Positions 1,008 to 33,210 of a DNA stretch of 33,210 bases are shown piece by piece. Position 1 is the stretch's first letter, and every line of letters starts with the position of its first letter. A program made the translations under genes and the position numbers. The notes under the pieces were generated by a model. It worked only from the letters and a program-made list of their open reading frames with translations, searched no databases and was not told where the DNA came from. This DNA comes from an uncultured Gammaproteobacteria bacterium (GTDB taxonomy: Bacteria; Patescibacteriota; Patescibacteriia; CAYHRN01), in the NCBI GenBank assembly GCA_964359155.1, contig CAYHRN010000002.1, positions 1 through 33,210 on the forward strand, read 5' to 3'.

Positions 1008-1220
1008 CTAACTAGAAAGAAAACTTTTTACATCTTCAGGGGTAATATCGGCGTCTTTGAGTATGCCGTGCAAAAGCCCCTTACCGAAAGTTTTTCCTCC
1101 ATGTACCGGCACCGAGACAATATGCCCATCACGTGCACGCCAGAAAATATGATGGCTTCCTTCAATACGATCAAGCACAAAACCTGCGTGCTGCAGCACG
1201 CGAAATAACTTAACGTGCAT
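1008..1220 (-). CDS. hicA: type II toxin-antitoxin system HicA-family mRNA interferase toxin
   Basis: 70 aa with ..FVLDRIEGSHHIF..VSVPVHGGKTFGKGLLHGILKDA.., the typical HicA/YcfA signature. Start overlaps the hicB stop. Confidence 0.85.
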   Translation of the reverse strand: MHVKLFRVLQHAGFVLDRIEGSHHIFWRARDGHIVSVPVHGGKTFGKGLLHGILKDADITPEDVKSFLSS

Positions 1221-1498
1221 TAAGCACGGGAAGACGCGGCATAAAGCGGCATCATGGAAACCTCTATGGTTTCAATCATTTCAATACTGGTATCATGGGG
1301 AATGGGTTCTTGATGCGCTTGCAGGGTTTTTATATAGCCGTAGATCGCCTCACGAAGATTCTTCTGTGCTTCGGCAATGGTGGTGCCCTGGCTATGGCAC
1401 CCACGCAATGCAGGAACATACCCATGAAATCCTTTGCCATCTTTTTCAATAAGGATGCGGTAGGAGAACATTTGTTCTGAATGTATTTTTTTTGCCAT
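1220..1498 (-). CDS. hicB: HicB-family (UPF0150) antitoxin
   Basis: 92 aa with ..YRILIEKDGKGFHGYVPALRGCHSQGTTIAEAQKNLREAI.., the HicB N-terminal fold signature. Translationally coupled to hicA. Confidence 0.8.
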   Translation of the reverse strand: MAKKIHSEQMFSYRILIEKDGKGFHGYVPALRGCHSQGTTIAEAQKNLREAIYGYIKTLQAHQEPIPHDTSIEMIETIEVSMMPLYAASSRA

Positions 1499-21315: not shown

Positions 21316-21740
21316 CAGCAACTTTGTGGCATGATATGCTGGGTATAGCAATGCTGCTTATACTTGATCAGGTGAGTAAATATATTGTGCCGCAATGGCA
21401 GATGACGTATACCTTGAATCAAGGGAGTGTTGCCGGATTAGGCAGAGAATTAAGCATACCGTGGTGGTGGTGGGCAATCCCGTCACTTATGGTGCTTACC
21501 TTATTGTGGCGCCCAGGGAAGTTTTTTATTCCCACCAAGAGTTTTTATAGTGCGCGCATACTGATCTCCTCCGGCATTGTGGGCAATCTTATTGACCGTT
21601 TCTCCTATGGTGCTGTGCTCGATTTTATTGATATCAGTATAGCGGGTTTTCATTGGCCCGCATTTAACTTTGCTGATATATATTTGGTAATGGGCGTCTT
21701 GTTGGTTCTTGTAACTTTGGTGTCCAGGAAGCATGTATAA
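21306..21740 (+). CDS. lspA: lipoprotein signal peptidase (signal peptidase II)
   Basis: ..GNLIDRFSYGAVLDFID..FNFADIYL.. motifs. ATG 21306 is preferred over track start 21270. Confidence 0.88.
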   Translation: MRLTATLWHDMLGIAMLLILDQVSKYIVPQWQMTYTLNQGSVAGLGRELSIPWWWWAIPSLMVLTLLWRPGKFFIPTKSFYSARILISSGIVGNLIDRFSYGAVLDFIDISIAGFHWPAFNFADIYLVMGVLLVLVTLVSRKHV

Positions 21741-22905
21741 ACGTATGTTTTCTTCTCGAAGGTCAAATGCTCATCGCGTTATTCGTTTTTCTGCACGGAG
21801 CTCGCCAAGGACGCACCGTTCACGGCGGCGTTCTTGGCTTCTGCCGCTGGTGCTTTCGTTGCTCATACTTGTTTCCACCCTCGGCATTGCAGGGCTTGCC
21901 CTTATTGTATGGATTTCGCATGATTTACCCGACCCCAATACTGCCCTTGCTGCCAAGGATTTTGCACAAAGTACGAAAATTTTTGATCGCACCGGTACGG
22001 TTAAATTATATGAACTGTATCAAGAGGAAAAACGCACCATACTCCCCTTTGAGGCAATGCCGTTAGTTGCGCGTCAAGCAACGTTAGCCGCCGAAGATAA
22101 AGATTTTTATTCTCATCGCGGGTTTGACCTTCGGGGTATTGCGCGTGCCTTGTATACCGATATTACGAAGGGCACCCTTGCACAAGGGGGCTCCACGATT
22201 ACCCAGCAGCTTATTAAAAATACTTTGCTCACGCGCGAAAAATCATTCACCCGTAAATTAAAAGAGTTGATTTTGGCGTATCGTATTGAGCAAAAATTTA
22301 CCAAAGATCAAATTTTAAAGCTGTACCTTAACGAAATTCCCTATGGAGCAAATGCCTATGGCATTCAGGCTGCTGCTGAAATTTATTTTGGCATTCCTGC
22401 ACTACAATTGAGCTTGGCCCAAGCAGCACTTTTGGCTAGTTTACCTAAAGCCCCCTCTCGCCTTTCACCCTATGGGGGCAATCTTGAAGAGCTCACCGCA
22501 CGGCAACACTATATACTCGATGTGATGGCGCGGCAGGGGTATATCAATCAAGACAGCGCCGCAAGCGCCAAGGCAGAGAAATTGGTATTTCGTACGCGAC
22601 GCGATGAAGTACAAGCACCCCATTTTGTGGCGTATATAAGGCAACTTCTTTCCCAAACGTATACCGAACAAGAATTACAACAAGGAGGATTTAAGATTAC
22701 TACCACCCTTGATCTCTCGCTGCAAAAATATGCCGAAGAGGCCATTGCTGAATGGGGGCCACGTAATGAAAAAGACTACAAGGCAAGCAATGCCGGGCTT
22801 ATCGCGCTGCATGGTACTACGGGTGAAATTGTAGCTATGGTAGGTTCACGAGATTTTTTTAATGAGAAAAATATATTTTCAATTATAAATTTGATTGGCA
22901 AGTAA
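21733..22905 (+). CDS. class A PBP, N-terminal fragment (TM anchor, GT51 domain, start of transpeptidase domain)
   Basis: GT51 motifs EDKDFYSHRGFD, GGSTITQQLIKN, RKLKELILA. Ends ..FFNEKNIFSIINLIGK* after the frame break. Confidence 0.85.
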   Translation: MYKRMFSSRRSNAHRVIRFSARSSPRTHRSRRRSWLLPLVLSLLILVSTLGIAGLALIVWISHDLPDPNTALAAKDFAQSTKIFDRTGTVKLYELYQEEKRTILPFEAMPLVARQATLAAEDKDFYSHRGFDLRGIARALYTDITKGTLAQGGSTITQQLIKNTLLTREKSFTRKLKELILAYRIEQKFTKDQILKLYLNEIPYGANAYGIQAAAEIYFGIPALQLSLAQAALLASLPKAPSRLSPYGGNLEELTARQHYILDVMARQGYINQDSAASAKAEKLVFRTRRDEVQAPHFVAYIRQLLSQTYTEQELQQGGFKITTTLDLSLQKYAEEAIAEWGPRNEKDYKASNAGLIALHGTTGEIVAMVGSRDFFNEKNIFSIINLIGK

Positions 22906-22949
22906 ATATTACGCTACGGCCACGCCAGCCAGGGTCTTCGTTTAAACCC

Positions 22950-24287
22950 TTGGTATATGCGGCTGCATTTATGAAGGGGTATACGCCCAATACCTTGGTC
23001 TTTGATACTAAAACTATTTTTAAGGCATACCCTGAAGACTATGCGCCCGAAAACTATGATGGTAAAGAGCATGGGCCCCTTCAGCTCAAGAGTGCGCTCG
23101 CAGGATCGCTGAATATTCCTGCCGTGAAACTCCTGTACATTACTGGGGTTGATCGTGTGCTCGACCTTGCCGAAGCGCTCGGCTACACCACCCTGAAAGA
23201 TCGTTCACGATTTGGGTTAAGCTTGGTATTAGGAGGCGCCGAGGTAAAGCTGCTGGAACATGCAGCAGCCTTTCGTTCATTTGCCGAGCATGGTATGTAT
23301 CGTGCGCCCAGTGCTATTGTGCAAATTCAAGATGCAGAAGGTAGTGTGGTGTATGAGCGCCGCAATAATCAGGCGCGTAGTGTGGTTGTCCCCGAGGTAG
23401 CACATACGATCACCAGTATTCTTTCCAATAATGCCCTGCGTACCTTTATTTTTGGCAGTAATAGTTTTCTCCAACTGCCCGATCGCCCTGCGGCCGTGAA
23501 AACCGGTACCACCAATGATTTTCATGATGCCTGGGCTTTGGGTGCAGTGCCCAGCCTCACTGCCGGGGTATGGGTGGGGAACAATGATAATAGCCCTATG
23601 AAAAAAGGGGCGGATGGCAGTAAACTTGCGGCACCTATTTGGCAAAGTTTTATGAAAAAGGCTTTGGCAGGTACACCGGTTCAGGAATTTGTGCCCCCCA
23701 AACCAAGCAGTGCGAATAAACCTATTTTAAAAGGTGAAGGCTTGGGTGAAGTGACGGTAATTCTCGATAAGGCATCGGGTAAACGTGCGACCAGCCTTAC
23801 GCCAGATTCGTTTAAAATAGAAAAGAAATTCAGAGTGCTGCACGATATTTTGTATTTTGTAAACAAAGACGACCCCACGGGCCCTGCACCTTTGCACCCC
23901 GAAACTGATCCGCAATACGCAGGGTTTGAGGCGGGTGTTGCCGCATGGGCACAGAAGCAAGGCTTACAAAATGAAGAGCCCCCCATAGGTGAAGATGATG
24001 TGCATGTACTAGACAATATTCCTCGCGTAACTATCGTAGCTCCTGTTACGGGGAGTCGCATTACAACATCTACTCCTTTGCAGACACAGGCAAGTGCCCC
24101 CCGGGGTGTTGCGCGCATGGAAGTGGCATTGAACGATATCGTTGTTGCACGCACACAAGGCTCTTCGCTTATTGCAACTCTTGATGTAAGCTCAGTCCCT
24201 CCTGGGTTTCACACCCTTACTGCCTATGCGTATGATGATATTGACAATAAAGGCACTGCGTCGGTGACCATCAATGTGACGCGATGA
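22950..24287 (+). CDS. class A PBP, C-terminal fragment (transpeptidase SxN and KTGT motifs plus Ig-like C-terminal domain)
   Basis: ..GSLNIPAV.. and ..VKTGTTND.. motifs. The frame stays open upstream to 22866 and there encodes RQPGSSFKP. Confidence 0.85.
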   Translation: MVYAAAFMKGYTPNTLVFDTKTIFKAYPEDYAPENYDGKEHGPLQLKSALAGSLNIPAVKLLYITGVDRVLDLAEALGYTTLKDRSRFGLSLVLGGAEVKLLEHAAAFRSFAEHGMYRAPSAIVQIQDAEGSVVYERRNNQARSVVVPEVAHTITSILSNNALRTFIFGSNSFLQLPDRPAAVKTGTTNDFHDAWALGAVPSLTAGVWVGNNDNSPMKKGADGSKLAAPIWQSFMKKALAGTPVQEFVPPKPSSANKPILKGEGLGEVTVILDKASGKRATSLTPDSFKIEKKFRVLHDILYFVNKDDPTGPAPLHPETDPQYAGFEAGVAAWAQKQGLQNEEPPIGEDDVHVLDNIPRVTIVAPVTGSRITTSTPLQTQASAPRGVARMEVALNDIVVARTQGSSLIATLDVSSVPPGFHTLTAYAYDDIDNKGTASVTINVTR

Positions 24288-25501: not shown

Positions 25502-27352
25502 TTATTTTTTTGATTCAATCTCTTTCAGGATTCGTTCGGTAAATTGTTTGCGGGTCATGGGTATAGTTGTTTCTTTACCACGCAACCGCACCGCAAGGCG
25601 CGTGCTTTTTGCTTCTTTGTCGCCCATAACCAGCATGTAGGGAATTTTTTGCTGTACAGCTTTACGGATTTTGTAGCCCACGGTTTCATTACTCAAGTCT
25701 GCATGCACTCTAATCCCCTGCTCTTTTAGTTCTTCCGCCAGTTTTTTAACTACCTTTTCATGTTTTTCCCCTACCGGAATAATACCTACTTGCACGGGCG
25801 CAAGCCATGTGGGAAAGGCGCCCGCGTAGTGTTCGATGAGAAAGCCAATAAGGCGTTCGTGGGTAGAAAGTGGTGCGCGGTGAATACACAAAGGAGTTTT
25901 CTCTGTGCCGTCTTTGTCTTTGTAGGTGAGATTAAACCGCGCAGGCACGGCAAAGTCTACTTGGTTCGTGGCAAGGGCAAACTCGCGCCCTATCGTGCTC
26001 CAAATCAGTACGTCAATCTTGGGGCCATAAAAGGCTGCTTCATTGGGCACTTCCACAAATGGCACTTTGGTTTTTATCAAAATAGTACGCACCATAGCTT
26101 CTGTTTTCTCCCATAGCGGCTTATTGTCGATGTATTTTTTACCCAGTCCTTCGGCACTATGCGTGCTAAGGCGGATGACATATTTTTTAATGCCAAAAAT
26201 TTTAAAGTATGCATGGTACAATTTAATCACGGCTAAAAATTCTTTTTCAAACTGTTCTTCGGTGCAATAAATATGCGCATCATTCATTTGCAAGCTGCGC
26301 ACGCGCATCAGGCCAAATAATTCCCCGCTTTTTTCGTAACGGTAGCAGGTGCCGTATTCTGCTAGGCGTAGTGGTAAGTCGCGGTAACTTCTGGGTTCTG
26401 CCGCATAAATTTGATGATGATGTGGGCAGTTCATGGCCTTCAGGTAATACGTAACTTTTTGCCCATTGTCTTCGTTCATCACCATGGGAGGGAACATGCT
26501 TTCGGCATAATAGGGCAAGTGGCCCGAAGTTTTATACATGTCTTCTTTTGCCACATGCGGGGTGCGTACGCGCACATACCCTGTGGCCGCTTCCATGTCT
26601 TTCCCAAGTTTTTCAATTTCTTCAATTAGTATTGCGCCATTGGGGAGCCAAAGGGGCAACCCAGGTCCCACCAAGTCGGAAAACGCAAACAGTTTCAGTT
26701 CTTTGCCAAGCTTGCGGTGGTCGCGGCGCTCAGCTTCTTTTAACAGTTCCAAGTGCGCATCCAGTTCTTCTTGGGTATGAAATGCAAGACCGTAAATGCG
26801 AGTGAGCATTTTGTTTTTCTCGCTCCCCCGCCAGTAGGCGCCCGCAAGGTGGGTAAGTTTAAATGCACCTAATTCGTTGGTGTTTTTAATATGAGGTCCG
26901 CGGCAGAGGTCTATAAATTTGCCGGTTTCATAGATGGAAGCCATGCCATTGCTCACTGAATCTTCGGAGGGTAAATCCCCCTTTTCTTCCCCCTTTGTAA
27001 AAGGGGGAACGAGGGGGATTTGTGTGGTTCCTCGCTCCTTCAGGTCGTTGAGGAGTTCAACTTTAAATTGTTGCCCGCGAGATTGAAAAAATGCAATTGC
27101 CTCATCGAGCGGCATTTCTTTGCGCACATAGGGAGTAGTACGTTTTGCCAAGTTGCGCATTTTTTGTTCAATCCGCACTAAATCTTGTGGCGTAATAGGT
27201 TGAGTAAACTGAAAGTCATAAAAAAATCCATGTTCAATCACGGGGCCAATGCCCAGCTTTACGCCGGGGTACAGCTCTTCCACGGCAGCGGCCATAAGGT
27301 GAGCAGTGGAATGGCGAAGGGTTTCGAGGTCGGGGTTTTGGTTGTTGCTCAT
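25502..27352 (-). CDS. thrS: threonine--tRNA ligase (no N-terminal TGS domain; carries an in-frame palindromic-element insert)
   Basis: HSTAHLMAAAV editing-domain motif, ..DLCRGPH.., class II motifs ..RVRSLQMNDAHIY.. and ..FYGPKID.., and an anticodon-binding domain. ATG 27352 (MSNNQNPDLETLRHSTAH..) is preferred over track start 27433. Confidence 0.95.
   Translation of the reverse strand: MSNNQNPDLETLRHSTAHLMAAAVEELYPGVKLGIGPVIEHGFFYDFQFTQPITPQDLVRIEQKMRNLAKRTTPYVRKEMPLDEAIAFFQSRGQQFKVELLNDLKERGTTQIPLVPPFTKGEEKGDLPSEDSVSNGMASIYETGKFIDLCRGPHIKNTNELGAFKLTHLAGAYWRGSEKNKMLTRIYGLAFHTQEELDAHLELLKEAERRDHRKLGKELKLFAFSDLVGPGLPLWLPNGAILIEEIEKLGKDMEAATGYVRVRTPHVAKEDMYKTSGHLPYYAESMFPPMVMNEDNGQKVTYYLKAMNCPHHHQIYAAEPRSYRDLPLRLAEYGTCYRYEKSGELFGLMRVRSLQMNDAHIYCTEEQFEKEFLAVIKLYHAYFKIFGIKKYVIRLSTHSAEGLGKKYIDNKPLWEKTEAMVRTILIKTKVPFVEVPNEAAFYGPKIDVLIWSTIGREFALATNQVDFAVPARFNLTYKDKDGTEKTPLCIHRAPLSTHERLIGFLIEHYAGAFPTWLAPVQVGIIPVGEKHEKVVKKLAEELKEQGIRVHADLSNETVGYKIRKAVQQKIPYMLVMGDKEAKSTRLAVRLRGKETTIPMTRKQFTERILKEIESKK
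26973..27021. repeat. nested-hairpin palindromic element inside the thrS coding sequence
   Basis: AAATCCCCC-ttttc-TTCCCCCTTT-gta-AAAGGGGGAA-cga-GGGGGATTT. Shares CCCTTTGTAAAAGGG and GGGATTTGTG with the copy at 29445-29493. Confidence 0.7.
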
Positions 27353-27447
27353 AAGGATTACAGTATTTAAAAAATGTAGCCGCAAGCTTGAGCTTGCGAT
27401 CAATGTGGATTTTAGTATATCACGCCGCACCATGAAACGTACAATGG

Positions 27448-27476
27448 TTGACCTTTCAAGTAAAGTTTGCTATTAT
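27448..27476 (+). promoter_or_regulatory. sigma70-type promoter with extended -10 for small ORF 27522-27665
   Basis: TTGACC (27448-27453), 17 nt spacer, TGC-TATTAT (27471-27476). Confidence 0.55.
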
Positions 27477-27521
27477 ATATTTGCCTAAAACCCCATGGAA
27501 AAATACAGAAAGGAGGCTTCC

Positions 27522-27665
27522 ATGGACAGTTTTTGGAACCGCCACCCGCGCCTCACGTGGGTTCTGCTGGTAGGTGAGGCTCTCGCGTTCGCGAGTATCC
27601 TCGCCTACGTGGGGTGGTTGGGCGTTCAACCACCGCCCCCTCCGCCACCCGCTCCCCCCACCTGA
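27522..27665 (+). CDS. small single-pass membrane peptide with polyproline C-terminus (47 aa; 56 aa if ATG 27495 is used)
   Basis: Hand-translated: MDSFWNRHPRLTWVLLVGEALAFASILAYVGWLGVQPPPPPPPAPPT*. AAAGGAGG lies 5 nt upstream. Has its own promoter and terminator, and G/C-ending codons. Confidence 0.5.
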   Translation: MDSFWNRHPRLTWVLLVGEALAFASILAYVGWLGVQPPPPPPPAPPT

Positions 27666-27702
27666 GTGGTGGTCGAGGAAGGTCCGGAGTATCCGGACCA
27701 GA

Positions 27703-27738
27703 AAGGCTCGTGCCACTAATGCCGGGCCTTCTTTTTTT
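27703..27738 (+). terminator. intrinsic terminator of the small-ORF cassette (abuts the stop of the convergent 353-aa protein gene)
   Basis: AAGGCTCG / CGGGCCTT 8-bp stem (one G-U) with a 12-nt loop, then C plus T7 (27732-27738). Preceded by a second hairpin GGTCCGGA-gta-TCCGGACC (27681-27699). Confidence 0.7.
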
Positions 27739-27746
27739 ATTTTGCA

Positions 27747-28808
27747 TTAACATCCACCACAGTTTCCTTTGCCTAAGGCAACTTCTTGTGAAGCACAGGA
27801 AGAAGAAAAGGAAATAAAATACTTCCATTGGCCAGGCGCAATATTGACTGATCGCAAGGCAATGGGCTTGAAGTTCTTACACTGTATCCATGAGGGGGCT
27901 TTATTGGGTTCAGGACGAATTTTATTTTTAAGGCTTTGTCCTTGGTCTGAGTAGGGAGCGCAATAGTTCTGTTGATTAGTGCAGCTTATTTTGGGTGTGC
28001 AAGCTTGGTAGAGTTTAGATGCTATGTCAGGCCATACTTTGTCGGCAAAGCATCGTTCGCATGCACGTGCTGCTACCTCAGGAGGCAGAATAACTATGGC
28101 AGTTTCGTTTTTCATGCCACCACCCTGAGCAAGGGTGCGGTAGGGTACCGTGACACTCACTCCTTCTTTTATTGGTGTGTTGCTTTGAATAGTCTTTCGG
28201 TCTGATAATTTATTATCTTCCATGATGCTTCTCAGTTTTTGAGGGATGCTGGTGAGCGGAAGCTCGAGCTCTGCGTCTATTTGATTTGATGTGGGGGGAA
28301 GTGCACCAAGATCCCAGGTACTTTTTTGGCATATGCTTTGCGTGGCATCATGAGGCGCGGAAGTTGTTTCTCCTGGCCAACGCAGTGGTGTGCCTGGTGC
28401 GAGGGATTCAAGAGGATCGCCAAATCCCCACATAGACCCTCTGCGTGCCTCTCTTGGATCAAAAAGTCCATTGTCTTGGAAAAAGAGGAGTGGTTTATCG
28501 GCAGCACTTTTGGTGTTCACGGTACCTTTAATGGTATTGCCACGTACTGGCGCTGGTATATTTTTAACTTTAAAGCCTTCCAGTGCTTGAAAGTAGGTGA
28601 GGCCATTGTGTTTTTTAAACGAAAGTCCTCGCGAAGAAAAGGTAGTCCCCTCACGGATCTTGTCAGCATTTTGCAACGTAAACGTAAAAGGTACTCCACA
28701 TGGTGGTTTTTGATCGAGCCAGTAGTCGGTAATAGCCTGGGCATGGAGGGGTGTTGTGGGCAGTATCAGGGCCATAATGGTAAGAGCAAAAAAGAAGTTG
28801 CGCATCAT
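27747..28808 (-). CDS. secreted hypothetical protein, Cys-rich C-terminal region
   Basis: Signal peptide MMRNFFFALTIMALILPTTPLHAQA. 11 Cys, 9 of them in the last about 105 residues. Ends GKGNCGGC. No motif recognised. Confidence 0.75.
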   Translation of the reverse strand: MMRNFFFALTIMALILPTTPLHAQAITDYWLDQKPPCGVPFTFTLQNADKIREGTTFSSRGLSFKKHNGLTYFQALEGFKVKNIPAPVRGNTIKGTVNTKSAADKPLLFFQDNGLFDPREARRGSMWGFGDPLESLAPGTPLRWPGETTSAPHDATQSICQKSTWDLGALPPTSNQIDAELELPLTSIPQKLRSIMEDNKLSDRKTIQSNTPIKEGVSVTVPYRTLAQGGGMKNETAIVILPPEVAARACERCFADKVWPDIASKLYQACTPKISCTNQQNYCAPYSDQGQSLKNKIRPEPNKAPSWIQCKNFKPIALRSVNIAPGQWKYFISFSSSCASQEVALGKGNCGGC

Positions 28809-28829
28809 ATGTAGTATTTTTCTTTTATA

Positions 28830-29429
28830 CTACTCTTTTTGAATGTGCACGTCTATGGTGAAGCTCAGAGCGGGGTTCGCGCCCAGCCAGGTATATTTGT
28901 TATTCACTTGGTATATAGGGCGAAAGGCAAGGGTATAGGTGCCAGGGATGCTGGGAGCAACCACGGAAAATGTAAATGTGCCGTGCGCAGTGGGCTCTAC
29001 GCTTTCTTCTTTAAGTGCGGCCACGCGTTTTTTGCCTGGCCAACTTTTGTGATACCAGGGGCTAGAATCTGCTTCGTCGGGCGCAAGAATTTGTAAAAAT
29101 GTAGTGGTGTTTGTCCATGTGGCAGTGCCGGTATTTTGAAATGTAGCAGAAAGGGTAAGAGTTTTTCCTGGGGCAGCAGAGATAAGTTTGTGGCTTTGGG
29201 AAATAAGTTTTTGAGACCAGGTAAAGGGTTCACCCTCACCCCCGCCTACGGCGGGGCCTCTCCCCTCAAGGGAGAGGCGGGTTTTTTCAGAGGGTAAGGG
29301 AGAGGGGTATGATTCAATTTCAAAATCATTCGCATGATTTCCTTGATATATCCTGAATAACCAAATCCCCTGCCCCACCAGGGCAAGGGTCAATACGCCA
29401 ATAACTATGGAGATGTATTCTTTTTTCAT
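28830..29429 (-). CDS. N-terminally membrane-anchored protein with beta-rich (Ig-like, possibly NBR1-type) ectodomain
   Basis: TM helix ISIVIGVLTLALVGQGIWLF, then a repeat-encoded linker. The beta-strand-like segment ..GKTLTLSATFQNTGTATW..GTFTFSVVAPSIPGTYTLAFRP.. is present. The domain call is tentative. Confidence 0.7.
   Translation of the reverse strand: MKKEYISIVIGVLTLALVGQGIWLFRIYQGNHANDFEIESYPSPLPSEKTRLSLEGRGPAVGGGEGEPFTWSQKLISQSHKLISAAPGKTLTLSATFQNTGTATWTNTTTFLQILAPDEADSSPWYHKSWPGKKRVAALKEESVEPTAHGTFTFSVVAPSIPGTYTLAFRPIYQVNNKYTWLGANPALSFTIDVHIQKE
29240..29287. repeat. tandem GC-rich hairpins embedded in frame in the anchored-protein gene
   Basis: CCCCGCC-tac-GGCGGGG (29240-29256) and GCCTCTCCC-ctcaa-GGGAGAGGC (29256-29278), followed by GGG plus T6 on the plus (antisense) strand. 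Translated on the minus strand as ..KTRLSLEGRGPAVGGGEGE.. Confidence 0.65.
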
Positions 29430-29444
29430 AGGCCGCGAATAGTA

Positions 29445-29493
29445 TACCTCTCATTCTCCCTTTGTAAAAGGGAGAAAAGAAGAGGGATTTGTG
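29445..29493. repeat. intergenic copy of the nested-hairpin palindromic element (5' leader region of the anchored-protein gene)
   Basis: TCTCCCTTT-gta-AAAGGGAGA (29455-29475) and GAGGGATTTGTG (29482-29493). Strings of 15 nt and 10 nt are identical to the thrS copy. Confidence 0.65.
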
Positions 29494-29500
29494 GCGTGCC

Positions 29501-29529
29501 TTGCTTTAATAATAAATTTATGCTATTAT
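29501..29529 (+). promoter_or_regulatory. sigma70-type promoter with extended -10 for ORF 29589-29966
   Basis: TTGCTT (29501-29506), 17 nt spacer, TGC-TATTAT (29524-29529). The string TGCTATTATgTATTTG nearly matches the promoter at 27468-27483. Confidence 0.5.
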
Positions 29530-29588
29530 GTATTTGGACCAAGATCGCGGATCTTGGCTTTGTTGGGCCTTTTCCCAGGGAGGGAGCC

Positions 29589-29966
29589 ATGTCGAACCAG
29601 CAGGCTGTCAGGCAGTTAACGATCAACTGCCTGATCATGCTCGTTTTTTTGGCCATGCTGGGGGTCGGGTGGCTTCACTACCGAGCAGCGGAGCTCGGTG
29701 TGCCGCTCATCCCCCGCCGACCCGTCGACCAGGTTGAGCTCGGTAGTGGGGCGCCCAGGCCCGAGGCGCCGCCCGAGAAAATCCTGGATTTCTCGGATAT
29801 CGGTCTGGCCGAGGCGGTCGCTAAGGGAGGCGCCGAGGGTGCTCGCGCGGCGGCCGAAGCCGTCACCAAGGCCGCGGAAGTGGTCGGCGACGTGGCAGCT
29901 GAGGGGGTCGGCAAGATCCCCGAAGCCATGGAGGAGGCGGAAAAAAAGAAAAAGCCGCCCAAGTAG
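29589..29966 (+). CDS. GC-rich small membrane protein: one TM helix, Pro-rich linker, Ala/Glu/Gly-rich tail (125 aa)
   Basis: ATG 29589 follows AGGGAGGGA by 3 nt. Sequence MSNQQAVRQLTINCLIMLVFLAMLGVGWLHY..PRRPVDQ..APRPEAPPE..AEAVAKGGAEGARAAAEAVTKAAEVV..EKKKKPPK. Strongly G/C-ending codons. The track start GTG 29496 would run through the promoter. Confidence 0.6.
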   Translation: MSNQQAVRQLTINCLIMLVFLAMLGVGWLHYRAAELGVPLIPRRPVDQVELGSGAPRPEAPPEKILDFSDIGLAEAVAKGGAEGARAAAEAVTKAAEVVGDVAAEGVGKIPEAMEEAEKKKKPPK

Positions 29967-29999
29967 GGTGGCAATTCAGGGCCTGGAGGGGGCCCGCAG

Positions 30000-30036
30000 G
30001 GAGGGGTAGACTACCAGTGCGTCGCCCCTCCTTTTT
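30000..30036 (+). terminator. intrinsic terminator of ORF 29589-29966, overlapping the stop of the convergent 711-aa protein gene
   Basis: GGAGGGG (30000-30006) pairs with CCCCTCC (30025-30031), followed by T5 (30032-30036). Confidence 0.55.
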
Positions 30037-32171
30037 CATTTCTTTGCCACACCTTTGAGTACTTTTTCTTGTTGTTCTTTAAGACGTTTCAATATTTCTA
30101 TGAAAAATTCTTTCAGGGGGTCAATAGTACCCATTTCTTTAATATAGTTTTTCTTTAAACCTATAAGACGCTCTTCTTCTTGCCGCATAAAGCGCTGCAT
30201 ACGCACGCCCAGGCGTTTGACCATGCGGATTTCTTTAATCTTAAGAAGAGTCTCTACTAACGCATCTAGTGCACGCGGTATTTGATATTTTAATGCCGTG
30301 GGGACGACTGAATCCAGTATCCCTGCAACTACCATGCGTATGTCATTTTCTGTGTCTTGAAGGGTGTCTTTGATAAATTTCGGCAATTTAATGGTACAGT
30401 CTTTTAAATACATGGCTTTCATATTTGCCAAAAGGCGGGTAAAGGCAAGTACAATCATCTCATTTTTAATACCAATGAATGGGGGTCCCCCAAGCACTTT
30501 TGCTATTTCTGGTATTTCTGGTGGCATAGGAGGAAGTCCGCCATTACCATCGGGGTCATTTTTGTGATCATCAAGCCAGCTCCTCGCAGCATAAGGGTCT
30601 TTAGCGCGCTTACGCAGTTCTCTAAAAGCTTCAGAGCCAATGAATGGCATGCCTACTACCACACCGCCTTTTCGATATTTTGTGGAGTAATCGCTGGCAG
30701 CTTCTAATAGTTGTTCAAGATCACCATTGTCTTTAAAATAAAGCTTTTTAAGTAATGAGGCAAGGCCTTTTTTGACGCGCGCATAGATTTCGTGTTTCAT
30801 GCGCAACTTCAGATGATCTTTTGCTTGCTCGCTACACTGCAAGTATTGTAATGCATCTTGTTCAAGGCTGCCTTTCTTGGGGTCAAACATGTCTTGAGGT
30901 TTTTTGGGTGCAAACGGGTTGATAAAGAGCGGTGGGGTTTTGGGAGGTGGTTGTGGCGCGGTGGTGTCTTTCGAATCTTCTTCCTCGGGGAACGAGGGAT
31001 CATTCTTTAATATACGATCAATATCTTCTTGAAGAGAGTCAAGATCTTTTTGAAAATCTGCCTTGGTGCTATGCAGCAGAGCATGCAAGTCTTTCAGGGC
31101 ATCAAGGAGGCCTTGCTTATTATCATTTTTTGCGGCAGCCAAAAGAGTGTCGAGTAATGCAAAGAGTTGGGTAATGCCACGATCGGCAAGTGCTGCTTTT
31201 AGAATACCTTCATGAATATCAATCTGGGGTGCGTTGCGGTCGTACTTTTTAGGATTATAAGAAATAGCATGTTCTAAAAGCCATGAAGCAGGCAAAGAAC
31301 AATTGGCAGGCCACACAGAAATAGCGCTCGCCAGGCCTTGCAAGATACGCAAGGTTTGTATGGGAACGGCAATACCACGTGCATATCCTCGGCCGTCGTC
31401 TTGCTTTTTTAATTCCTTTACCGCTTCAGCCAAGGTGGGGCGTGGCGTAGGTACGGTAAGGCCTTGTGCTGCGTACGCTTTTTCAATTGTTTCATCCCAG
31501 AGCGGCCAGATGGCGTCCAAGAATTTACGGCCGATCAATGCCTTTATGTCTTGATAGCTTGCTTTGGGATTAAAACTACAATCGGCAATTTCTTGCACGA
31601 GCGTGTCTTGAAACTGTTTGAGCATCTGCGTTTCGTCCAAATTAGCATCAATGGCAGGTGGCGCACCAGTACCTGGTAAATCTGGTTTTAATAGTACCCC
31701 TGGTGCCGGGGCTATGCCTGGAGTGTGTACAAACGCAAAGAGTGGGGTAAGTGCGGTATTGGCAACAAATTGCTCTTTACTCACCGTGCTGGTGCCTTGC
31801 AACAAGGCCTGCACGATTGCATCAAAACGTAAGCGCGCAACAAGCGTGGCAAGGTTATTGGCCACGCCTTGTGCCATGGTAATATCTTCTTTGCTTGAGG
31901 GTTGTACCCGCAGTAATGTTTGTCCCAGTATTTGGTTCTTACGGGTGGCACTTAGGCGATACAAGGTGGGAGTAGTTACCACAGGAGTATTAAAATATTT
32001 TTCCCAGGTATTGTCGAGGGGCCTTGCCTTACAGCCCACGACACCACTTGGTACTTCTTGCCCGCCTAAATTTTGTGCAGGAAAACTTGGGCGGGCTTGT
32101 AGGGCGGCCATTGCAGGCGTAAGTGGGCCAAGCAGCAGGCTTAAGATAATAAAAGGAGTGAGAAGTTGCAT
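30036..32171 (-). CDS. secreted hypothetical protein, 711 aa, mostly helical with a central Pro-rich linker
   Basis: Signal peptide MQLLTPFIILSLLLGPLTPAMAA. Linker ..TTAPQPPPKTPPLFINPFAPKKP... No motif recognised. Starts 7 nt after the upstream gene's stop. Confidence 0.8.
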   Translation of the reverse strand: MQLLTPFIILSLLLGPLTPAMAALQARPSFPAQNLGGQEVPSGVVGCKARPLDNTWEKYFNTPVVTTPTLYRLSATRKNQILGQTLLRVQPSSKEDITMAQGVANNLATLVARLRFDAIVQALLQGTSTVSKEQFVANTALTPLFAFVHTPGIAPAPGVLLKPDLPGTGAPPAIDANLDETQMLKQFQDTLVQEIADCSFNPKASYQDIKALIGRKFLDAIWPLWDETIEKAYAAQGLTVPTPRPTLAEAVKELKKQDDGRGYARGIAVPIQTLRILQGLASAISVWPANCSLPASWLLEHAISYNPKKYDRNAPQIDIHEGILKAALADRGITQLFALLDTLLAAAKNDNKQGLLDALKDLHALLHSTKADFQKDLDSLQEDIDRILKNDPSFPEEEDSKDTTAPQPPPKTPPLFINPFAPKKPQDMFDPKKGSLEQDALQYLQCSEQAKDHLKLRMKHEIYARVKKGLASLLKKLYFKDNGDLEQLLEAASDYSTKYRKGGVVVGMPFIGSEAFRELRKRAKDPYAARSWLDDHKNDPDGNGGLPPMPPEIPEIAKVLGGPPFIGIKNEMIVLAFTRLLANMKAMYLKDCTIKLPKFIKDTLQDTENDIRMVVAGILDSVVPTALKYQIPRALDALVETLLKIKEIRMVKRLGVRMQRFMRQEEERLIGLKKNYIKEMGTIDPLKEFFIEILKRLKEQQEKVLKGVAKK

Positions 32172-32178
32172 GCAAGGA

Positions 32179-33210
32179 TTATAATCCTAGAGCCGAGGGT
32201 ACGGCAAAGAATTTACCCCAGGAAAGATAGTACAACATGAGTTTGAGTTTACCTGTGAAGCCGGCGTAGTACGAGGCAATGGCCTCTGGGGACACGGTGA
32301 GTAACTGCTCTTGGCTAAGAAGTTCCAGTAAGAGTTCGTAGGAAACGCTTTGTTGGCTAAGAGGCTTATCAGTAGTGAGAACTAAAGGTTGGGCTTTCGA
32401 CACTGTCGATGGTTGTGCGGTAAGGGTCGCGGCAACGGATTCACCTGTGGGGGATGTGATGGTAGGCGTTGTTTGCGCAAGTTCTTGCTGCGACATACCT
32501 GCAAAGTTAAGGGTTACGGTTCTCGCAGTGCTTACGGTGCCTGAAGCACCCCCTACGGTAACCACAGATCCTGGGGGAGCATTAGGTACCGTGAATGATA
32601 CGGAAGAGCCACCGCTTGAGGTGCCGCCAGAAGGCGTGGTGGCGGGCAAGGGAAGGCTGGAGGTGATTTCTGGCAGATCATTCAAACGCTCAGTATCAGT
32701 AGCTTTCGTTGCTTGTTGTGGATTTGTGGCAACCGCAATACTGTCTTGTAGTTCTGCTTGTGTAAGGGTGCGCGTGTGTGGCCCGTCTGCTGTGTCAGCA
32801 GTAAAAGTAACTGATATAATGTCGTTGAGCTCTTTAAATATTTCATCCCATGAGGTGAAGGTAAAGCGTGTGCCGTCTTTTTTTATGCCCGTGCCCGTCA
32901 ATGATGCAGTGCTTACCGCAACCCCATTGAAGAGTAATTCAGGCATACATGCTCTTGTTTGCGTGCCTTCACTGCTAGTTCCCGTACCCCCAGGGCTCGA
33001 GAATGTGTACATGCCATTTTGCCCAGGTCCGGCGTAGGAGAAGAGTGCTCCACCGGATAACGCTCCACCAGTATCTTGTGCTGATACATTTGGTACTGGG
33101 GTCAGCTCCAAAGTAATTTCTGATCTGGTAAAACTGTTAAATTGAGCCGCTACGGGGGTTAATGGTAAAAGTATAAAGCTTGCAATGGCACTAAATATGA
33201 AAAAACGCAT
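32179..33210 (-). CDS. secreted hypothetical protein, Thr/Ser/Gly-rich, hydrophobic C-terminus (start codon at the window edge)
   Basis: Signal peptide MRFFIFSAIASFILLPLTPVAAQ. Low-complexity T/S/G tracts. C-terminal ..KLKLMLYYLSWGKFFAVPSALGL. Its upstream region lies outside the window. Confidence 0.7.
   Translation of the reverse strand: MRFFIFSAIASFILLPLTPVAAQFNSFTRSEITLELTPVPNVSAQDTGGALSGGALFSYAGPGQNGMYTFSSPGGTGTSSEGTQTRACMPELLFNGVAVSTASLTGTGIKKDGTRFTFTSWDEIFKELNDIISVTFTADTADGPHTRTLTQAELQDSIAVATNPQQATKATDTERLNDLPEITSSLPLPATTPSGGTSSGGSSVSFTVPNAPPGSVVTVGGASGTVSTARTVTLNFAGMSQQELAQTTPTITSPTGESVAATLTAQPSTVSKAQPLVLTTDKPLSQQSVSYELLLELLSQEQLLTVSPEAIASYYAGFTGKLKLMLYYLSWGKFFAVPSALGL

Follow-up and report, generated by a model that had tools for sequence, protein, structure and literature searches.

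A probable lineage-specific secretome locus of a Patescibacteria bacterium, with a predicted exported helical protein encoded beside a convergent small membrane-protein gene

Gene organisation of the locus

The 33,210-bp window analysed here is one entire contig, CAYHRN010000002.1, and this report concerns a predicted secretome locus that lies upstream of its thrS gene. As listed in Table 1, the locus contains four minus-strand genes, which we call A343, B711, C199 and D353, and two plus-strand genes for small membrane proteins, E125 and F47. The minus-strand genes form two pairs, with gaps of 7 nt between A343 and B711 and of 21 nt between C199 and D353, and an earlier reading made from the letters alone (hereafter the sequence-only reading) had given these four open reading frames (ORFs), their coordinates and both spacers exactly as they stand in the sequence. 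The G+C content at third codon positions (GC3) of the four genes is 0.40-0.47, within the 0.39-0.49 range of 31 genes of the contig (mean 0.445, sd 0.029), and this native GC3 and codon-position composition indicates that all four are genuine resident coding genes.

The ATG of A343 is the final triplet of the contig. Two overlapping European Nucleotide Archive (ENA) contigs, L083 and L084 (0.85x coverage, 94.6% identical, with many indel errors), extend beyond this end, and past the ATG their sequence is intergenic and rich in hairpins for about 330 bp; thus, the terminal ATG is probably the real start. A selection analysis of the window against these two contigs was dropped, since they carry hundreds of indels, even in thrS, and the differences are errors.

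The A343 product is rich in Thr (14.0%), Ser (11.7%) and Gly (8.7%), as had been described, but the hydrophobic C-terminus ascribed to it is only moderately so: its best 19-residue Kyte-Doolittle window reaches 1.01 and includes two Lys, which is not of transmembrane (TM) grade. The nine Cys claimed for D353 were confirmed exactly, all within its last 104 residues (positions 250, 253, 270, 276, 283, 310, 338, 350 and 353); this C-terminal third includes a CERC motif and the terminal CGGC of the GKGNCGGC ending.

Table 1. Positions of the genes and signals of the locus in the window
Feature	Position	Strand	Description
A343	32179-33210	-	343-aa Thr/Ser/Gly-rich predicted exported protein; operon 1, first gene (ORF and translation)
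B711	30036-32171	-	711-aa predicted all-alpha exported protein; operon 1, after A343
B711 conserved C-terminal domain	30039-31652	-	aa 174-711; common to the P0004 C-terminus and the L082 fragment
C199-D353 operon promoter-like site	29441-29468	-	TTTACA-16 nt-TATACT, 11 nt before the C199 ATG (consensus scan)
C199	28830-29429	-	199-aa protein with N-terminal anchor; operon 2, first gene
D353	27747-28808	-	353-aa predicted exported protein with Cys-rich C-terminal third; operon 2
E125 promoter-like site	29501-29529	+	TTGCTT-17 nt-TATTAT, TG upstream
E125	29589-29966	+	125-aa single-pass membrane protein, convergent with B711; GC 65%, GC3 0.78
E125 terminator	30000-30036	+	GGAGGGG...CCCCTCC hairpin and T run in the gap that separates the E125 and B711 stops; also in the fold
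F47 promoter-like site	27448-27476	+	TTGACC-17 nt-TATTAT, TG-extended (consensus scan)
F47	27522-27665	+	47-aa single-pass membrane peptide with poly-Pro tail, convergent with D353; GC 66%, GC3 0.72
F47 terminator region	27681-27740	+	Pair of hairpins plus T run in the gap that separates the F47 and D353 stops; perfect 8-bp stem at 27681-27699; also in the fold
Other contig genes			dnaA-dnaN, rnpA, yidC, infB, ruvC, lspA, pentose-phosphate genes, split PBP1, MFS transporter, thrS

A rare helical domain and its convergent partner

A word-indexed search of 5.8 billion protein clusters returned only B711 itself for B711 and no relatives for D353. By a full HMMER scan of 1.84 billion representative proteins we obtained three matches to B711, namely P0004, P0005 and P0006; P0006 is an error-ridden copy of B711 on L083, hence B711 has two true relatives. 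The first of these, P0004, is an uncharacterised protein of 1,294 aa encoded on the Logan contig L081, and its last 509 residues (aa 786-1294) align end-to-end with aa 174-711 of B711 at 26% identity (BLASTP E 6e-31), with an invariant AVPIQTLRILQGL block and a Pro-rich hinge in the alignment. As P0004 also has a hydrophobic segment at its N-terminus and a beta-propeller of the Ycf48/BNR type (PF14870, E 2.8e-20), the helical domain of B711 appears to occur in extracytoplasmic proteins. The second relative, P0005 (BLASTP E 6e-15), is the C-terminal fragment of a third family member on L082, a contig from Hainich groundwater, where its frame runs upstream to the contig edge. An AlphaFold2 model of B711 from a 4-row alignment was nearly all helix with a disordered Pro-rich hinge (about aa 389-430), at a mean predicted local distance difference test score (pLDDT) of 38.9, and a single-sequence model of D353 reached 37.9.

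The sequence-only reading had regarded the plus-strand regions as GC-rich antisense cassettes that interrupt the locus. Instead, E125 and F47 are real genes with their own promoters, Shine-Dalgarno sequences and terminators. Both are annotated as genes in the NCBI and ENA records (F47 with 47 aa in ENA and 56 aa in NCBI), their ribosome-binding sites are GGGAGGGAG and AAAGGAGG, respectively, and their promoters have in common the 16-mer TGCTATTATRTATTTG (direct repeat D8). In E125, a single TM segment is followed by a Pro-rich linker and an Ala/Glu/Gly-rich tail, and the gene ends 69 nt from the B711 stop. As a side observation, L083 and L084 have 98 gap columns against the window in thrS alone, yet not one indel or mismatch in E125 and F47 (27522-27665, 29589-29966).

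What sets E125 apart is that it is conserved beside the B711 family. The L082 contig encodes a 132-aa homologue, 41% identical to E125 over 121 aa (E 1.8e-21), which is convergent with the B711-family gene there, the two stops being 10 nt apart, and which has a promoter of its own (TTGACA-18-TATTGT). A profile of E125 run against the 5.8 billion clusters retrieved these two known members only. Conserved synteny of a two-gene module is thereby indicated, of which E125 is a part rather than an intruder.

The L081 locus resembles that of B711 in that the P0004 gene is followed by a convergent gene for a small protein with an N-terminal TM segment (103 aa) at the same position, then by further leader-bearing ORFan genes, and a second small TM gene comes after the next leader-bearing protein. 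It differs in the approximately 785 extra N-terminal residues of P0004, beta-propeller included, in having no A343-like upstream gene and in its small proteins, for which hmmsearch and hhalign detected no homology to E125; the same two programs detected none between the 1,236-aa protein of L081 and B711. Over L081:1-11600 we noted three leader-bearing ORFan genes on one strand (1,294, 1,236 and 474 aa) with two small convergent N-terminal-TM genes of raised GC3 between them. This locus adjoins infC-rpmI-rplT while that of the window adjoins thrS, and as these genes are neighbours in many bacteria, the two positions may be homologous.

These homologues also bear on the possibility that the locus is decaying or non-functional ORFan DNA, or an assembly artefact. 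Such a view could appeal to the near absence of relatives anywhere, to the weak Shine-Dalgarno sequences before B711 and D353 and to the low-confidence structure predictions. However, open frames of 199-711 codons are unexpected by chance at 47% GC, codon-position composition is like that of housekeeping genes, the gene order of the locus was found again in two independent ENA assemblies, and the homologues of B711 and E125 are conserved at the protein level; we therefore consider junk DNA highly improbable.

A more substantial alternative is suggested by the gene arrangement itself: B711, and possibly D353, might be a secreted antagonistic or host-directed effector whose conserved C-terminal domain is the active part and is joined to N-terminal parts for delivery or binding that differ between organisms, with E125 and F47, convergent and constitutively promoted, protecting the producer, as in bacteriocin-like toxin-immunity modules. 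In the operons of pore-forming colicins, the immunity gene lies on the opposite strand (PMC4436062), which provides a precedent. Like a colicin, B711 is large, mostly helical, predicted to be exported and conserved in its C-terminal part, which in B711 and P0004 stands behind unrelated N-terminal parts. The gene for the small membrane protein comes next after that for the large one, converges on it and has a near-consensus promoter of its own and a Shine-Dalgarno sequence, in the window as well as in L082; the positional analogue in L081 is convergent too, and there the more diverged large protein P0004 is paired with a more diverged small partner. However, searches of Pfam, NCBIfam and PADLOC gave no match to toxin, colicin or immunity families. 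A hydrophobic helical hairpin is lacking in B711 (best internal 19-residue window 1.27), and E125 and its homologue have one hydrophobic segment each, as opposed to the 3-4 TM helices of colicin immunity proteins. Furthermore, a Sec-type leader is predicted for B711, a lysis gene is absent, and the locus is a chromosomal one of Patescibacteria. With regard to polymorphic toxin systems, no C-terminal toxin domain or immunity model from the same three collections matched here, and neither polymorphic C-terminal cassettes nor orphan immunity genes are present. Taken as an analogy, the colicin would fit the gene geometry and the domain-swapped N-termini but fails in every comparison at the sequence level, and we regard a toxin-immunity function as unlikely.

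Leaders of the exported proteins

Leaders were judged by reading and by Kyte-Doolittle windows. Those of A343 (MRFFIFSAIASFILLPLTPVAA|Q; n-region MR, a 13-residue h-region and VAA|Q) and D353 (MMRNFFFALTIMALILPTTPLHAQA|I; MMR, an h-region and AQA|I) fit the pattern of Sec export and signal peptidase I, and in that of B711 (MQLLTPFIILSLLLGPLTPAMA|A) an h-region and AMA|A follow an n-region devoid of Lys and Arg. C199 has a TM helix at aa 6-24 that, from its hydrophobicity and charge flanks, is predicted to be an uncleaved N-terminal anchor. The earlier claim of three cleavable-type leaders and one N-terminally anchored product is thus borne out as far as it can be read from the sequence.

The three cleavable leaders, which are the only ones of this type on the contig, had been said to resemble one another at the h/c boundary, and the strings quoted for them (FILLPLTPVAAQ, LLLGPLTPAMAA and LILPTTPLHAQA) are indeed present. 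This resemblance goes beyond chance. On the contig, P[LTIVA]TP within the first 35 residues is found in A343, B711 and D353 only, that is, in 3/3 of these leaders, while the P-x-T-P motif is present in 0/227 leader- or TM-like N-termini of ORFs of at least 100 aa from 80 Patescibacteria-type loci. The B711 and D353 genes are also alike in their 5' coding DNA, which begins with ATGC(G)CAACTTCT and has later blocks in common, and no similarity was detected among the mature parts of the leader-bearing proteins. Alike leaders and 5' DNA in front of unlike mature proteins suggest that the leaders descended by duplication, with rapid divergence downstream. Look-alike leaders within one locus also occur in L081 (SLPVFA|ED and SYPVLA|GD; MRVFIF compared with MRFFIF in A343), although there without the T-P signature.

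Conserved signal sequences combined with fast-evolving mature regions are known from some secreted gene families, for example conotoxin precursors. The present leaders are comparable in being alike in protein and partly in DNA while the mature parts are dissimilar. The differences are that only three genes of very unequal length are involved here and that evidence of diversifying selection is absent, the near-identical copies being error-ridden assemblies only.

Alternatively, the look-alike leaders could mark a dedicated export or sorting route, being a lineage-specific signal for a particular peptidase or sorting enzyme. The restriction of P-x-T-P to these leaders is in line with this, and LPLTP and LPTTP resemble LPxT-type motifs. 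On the other hand, neither a sortase, rhombosortase or exosortase nor any other dedicated partner is encoded on the contig, the sorting-signal models of NCBIfam gave no match, the resemblance of the 5'-end DNA fits duplication, and P0004 and its neighbours have different c-regions, all of which makes such a route very unlikely in our view. Of the two origins offered in the sequence-only reading, common ancestry or a shared sorting determinant, the resemblance on which both drew is real, but a sorting signal is inseparable from descent of the leaders or from an organism-wide habit.

Other export signals were looked for as well. A regular-expression search found no lipobox in the leaders, its only match being VVGC at aa 44-47 of B711, after the leader, though lspA is present on the contig; nor do the leaders have a Tat motif or a pilin motif (G|F..E leader). 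For C-terminal sorting signals (sortase, PEP-CTERM, GlyGly-CTERM) there was no NCBIfam match at E up to 1 and no C-terminal segment of TM grade. B711 has an internal LPGTG, the sole LPxTG, at aa 165-169 (31665-31679, minus strand), directly before its conserved C-terminal domain; without a following TM helix or basic tail, the motif does not qualify as a canonical sortase signal, and it may be there by chance (rough estimate p ~0.03 over four proteins).

Third-codon composition of the small genes

Both small genes exceed the GC3 expected from their amino-acid content and the codon usage of the contig, E125 with 0.78 against 0.46 (z 7.5) and F47 with 0.72 against 0.50 (z 3.3). The same contrast is seen on L082, where the E125 homologue has a GC3 of 0.75 and the adjoining B711-like gene 0.45, and the two positional analogues in L081 are raised too (z 2.8 and 4.7). 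An excess that is kept at 41% protein identity renders un-ameliorated transfer unlikely. Transcripts of the small genes fold more stably than shuffled sequences (z -4.6, -4.7 and, for F47, -4.9, compared with -2.2 for a control), and no RNA structure common to the two E125 homologues was evident. Elsewhere, 10/93 small intergenic ORFs with an N-terminal TM segment in other Patescibacteria-type loci have a GC3 more than 3 sd above that of their neighbours (e.g. L003:15660-15893, L040:16901-17146, L078:2986-3138 and L078:14994-15230), and a raised GC3 may be a more general trait of small membrane-protein genes.

The compositional contrast could mean that the small genes have nothing to do with their neighbours, being horizontally acquired or selfish membrane-peptide genes in the gaps of a plastic region, F47 perhaps resembling a type I toxin through its structured mRNA and convergent transcription. 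Their GC3 outside the range of the 31 contig genes, their stably folding transcripts, the raised GC3 of small TM ORFs in other loci of the candidate phyla radiation (CPR) and the GC-rich island that starts past the contig end (see below) would all be compatible with this. Type I toxin-antitoxin systems encode small membrane peptides, such as those of the Hok, Fst and TxpA types. F47 is like them in its 47 aa, single TM helix, strong promoter and Shine-Dalgarno sequence, structured transcript and a 3' end that faces a convergent transcript, but it differs in that no antisense RNA, Rfam match or homology to a known toxin was found for it and in its atypical poly-Pro tail. Rfam searches of the whole window, and of 27300-30100 with a permissive threshold, were without a family match. 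The length of E125 and its conserved hydrophilic tail do not suit a type I toxin, E125 and its L082 homologue are without an obvious common RNA structure, and the homologue keeps both its convergent partner and its GC3 excess at their degree of divergence, which argues against recent independent insertion. We thus find it distinctly unlikely that the small genes are unrelated to the genes they face.

Domains of the remaining products

Pfam, NCBIfam, PHROGs and PADLOC searches with all six products yielded a single match, below threshold, in C199, and no significant match came from sequence searches of the PDB, in which the queries were single sequences, a B711 profile and the isolated C199 domain. 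The C199 match covers aa 86-170 and corresponds to positions 9-89 of the 108 in Pfam PF16158 (N_BRCA1_IG; E 1.7e-5, 25.7 bits, where the cut-off is 28); CARDB and NPCBM_assoc matches, weaker still, overlap the first strand of this region. From its sequence, C199 probably has an immunoglobulin (Ig)-like domain of the NBR1 type at aa 86-170. The name of this domain, FW, presumably stands for four tryptophans, which W105, W125, W130 and W181 of C199 would fit, and CARDB-like beta-sandwiches offer a second likeness. In contrast to NBR1, an autophagy receptor, C199 is a short membrane-anchored bacterial protein, with a sub-threshold score and no PDB match.

At E up to 1, A343, B711 and D353 had no match of any kind in Pfam or NCBIfam, the S-layer (SLH), pilin, Big, cadherin-like and similar adhesin models included. 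The statement that these proteins have no recognisable domains therefore stands for A343 and D353 and requires amendment for C199, with its sub-threshold PF16158 match, and for B711, with its rare conserved domain. That no component could be assigned to a known system agrees with our finding that no characterised family matched at threshold.

Two sequence features touch the C199-D353 operon. The 23-nt palindrome TTCYCCCTTTGTAAAAGGGRGAA has two copies, at 26987-27009 inside thrS and at 29454-29476, where it overlaps the promoter-like site of C199, and it is absent from 82 other loci. Its thrS copy codes for about 8 extra residues (LVPPFTKG) that are missing from most threonyl-tRNA synthetase (ThrRS) homologues, and looks like an in-frame palindromic insertion. 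Two adjoining perfect GC-rich hairpins, GCCTCTCCCC..GGGAGAGGC and CCCCGCC..GGCGGGG, are found at 29232-29280, within the region that codes for the Gly-rich linker of C199.

Setting of the locus and source organism

The ThrRS of the contig shares no more than 66% identity with its counterparts in Microgenomates, Staskawiczbacteria, Peregrinibacteria/Peribacteria and further metagenome-assembled genomes of Patescibacteria, which makes the source organism a CPR bacterium with no close relative sequenced among the GTDB species representatives. This placement in Patescibacteria, as a tiny-genome bacterium of the groundwater type, bears out the small-genome bacterium surmised in the sequence-only reading.

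The content of the site upstream of thrS, where all six genes are located, differs among relatives. In the closest ones dnaE lies upstream of thrS, and a few loci (L001, L002/L003, L004) have unrelated inserted leader-bearing genes there. A tblastn comparison with 80 thrS-centred loci from related genomes detected no relative of the six locus products at up to 10 kb from thrS. This variability supports the plastic accessory region that had been proposed.

Prophage or mobile-element origin was rejected, as none of the approaches gave any signal: PHROGs returned 0 hits, six IMG/VR scans 0 relatives, and there is no integrase or transposase near the locus, its neighbours on the contig being housekeeping genes. 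Two JGI metagenome scans likewise returned 0 relatives. In these contig scans the negative for B711 is a weak one, since it was obtained with weakly conserved peptides and not with the VPIQTLRILQGL block. A defence signal was lacking as well.

The end of the window contig marks a compositional boundary. Starting about 330 bp upstream of A343, L083:9200-15180 and L084:6677-12554 contain a GC-rich island (56-67% GC, GC3 0.55-0.80) that is at least 6 kb long and codes for two Ser/Thr protein kinase/FGE-sulfatase-domain proteins, broken by assembly errors, and a 92-aa lipoprotein with the lipobox LVVGC. At the opposite contig end there is a third short GC-rich stretch (757-928, up to 65% in 150-nt windows), which overlaps ORFs that could not be annotated; no gene for a small membrane protein lies in it.

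Further along the contig, the class A penicillin-binding protein gene seems to be split at 21733-24287 (plus strand): the transglycosylase ORF ends with a TAA at 22903-22905, and the transpeptidase part (RQPGSSFKP, with the SxxK motif) resumes in a different frame from about 22923, owing to either a frameshift, pseudogene formation or an assembly error. At 1008-1498 (minus strand), inspection by eye alone suggests a toxin-antitoxin pair of HicA-like (70 aa) and HicB-like (92 aa) proteins, which adjoins dnaN-dnaA, the presence of which indicates that the contig includes the replication-origin region.

Discussion

We somewhat favour the view that the locus is a lineage-specific, ORFan segment of the cell envelope and secretome, in which two Sec-exported operons face small membrane-protein genes and which includes a B711/E125 module. 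A343, B711 and D353 would be exported by the general Sec pathway with cleavage of the Ala-x-Ala type and would thus act outside the cell, and C199, held by its uncleaved N-terminal helix, would display the Ig-like domain. The look-alike leaders are better explained, in this model, by common descent of the 5' ends and fast divergence of the mature parts than by a special sorting signal. At its 3' end, each operon faces E125 or F47, a gene that has its own promoter and terminator and codes for a small bitopic membrane protein. B711 would contribute a rare two-lobed helical C-terminal domain, which elsewhere ends a beta-propeller surface protein as well, and E125 may be its cognate membrane partner, serving as a tether, an export helper or a protector. 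The host-interaction module envisaged in the sequence-only reading is conjecture.

Several observations weigh against this interpretation. Conservation of the B711/E125 pair extends to two organisms, the small proteins of L081 being without detectable E125 homology. Lys and Arg residues flanking the TM segment in the E125 family number 1-2 on the N side and 3 on the C side, which leaves the positive-inside rule ambiguous, and the E125 tail could be cytoplasmic, out of reach of a secreted B711. The n-region of the B711 leader is uncharged, P-x-T-P may be an organism-wide habit given the three cleavable leaders of the contig, both structure models are unusable with a pLDDT of about 38, and a secretome model does not account for the strong GC3 excess of E125 and F47.

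A bolder version would treat the B711-family domain and the E125-family protein as an undescribed two-component module of ultra-small Patescibacteria, consisting of a secreted effector and a membrane partner for immunity or tethering. The GC3 of the partner might then be held by selection on the RNA, for instance for expression control against convergent transcription, and the same logic would recur in D353/F47 and in L081. We think this version rather unlikely.

Attachment to other microbes is the way of life of Patescibacteria, and its likely tools are surface proteins, most of which are unannotated orphans. Orphan exported proteins are common in the group; the locus is typical of such dark matter and not a recognisable new machine, so the finding is of modest interest, the convergent pair and the GC3 anomaly being the parts of note. 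The helical domain of B711 was found in three organisms only among 1.84 billion representative proteins, and it has a conserved convergent partnership with a small membrane protein. The locus is also a clean case of alike leaders with diverged mature proteins, and the GC3 excess, kept across lineages, poses a small puzzle in gene-level composition. If the B711/E125 pairing is not functional, the locus would be ordinary lineage-specific dark matter; if it is functional, in immunity or in tethering, it would offer a way into the question of how such cells manage secreted effectors.

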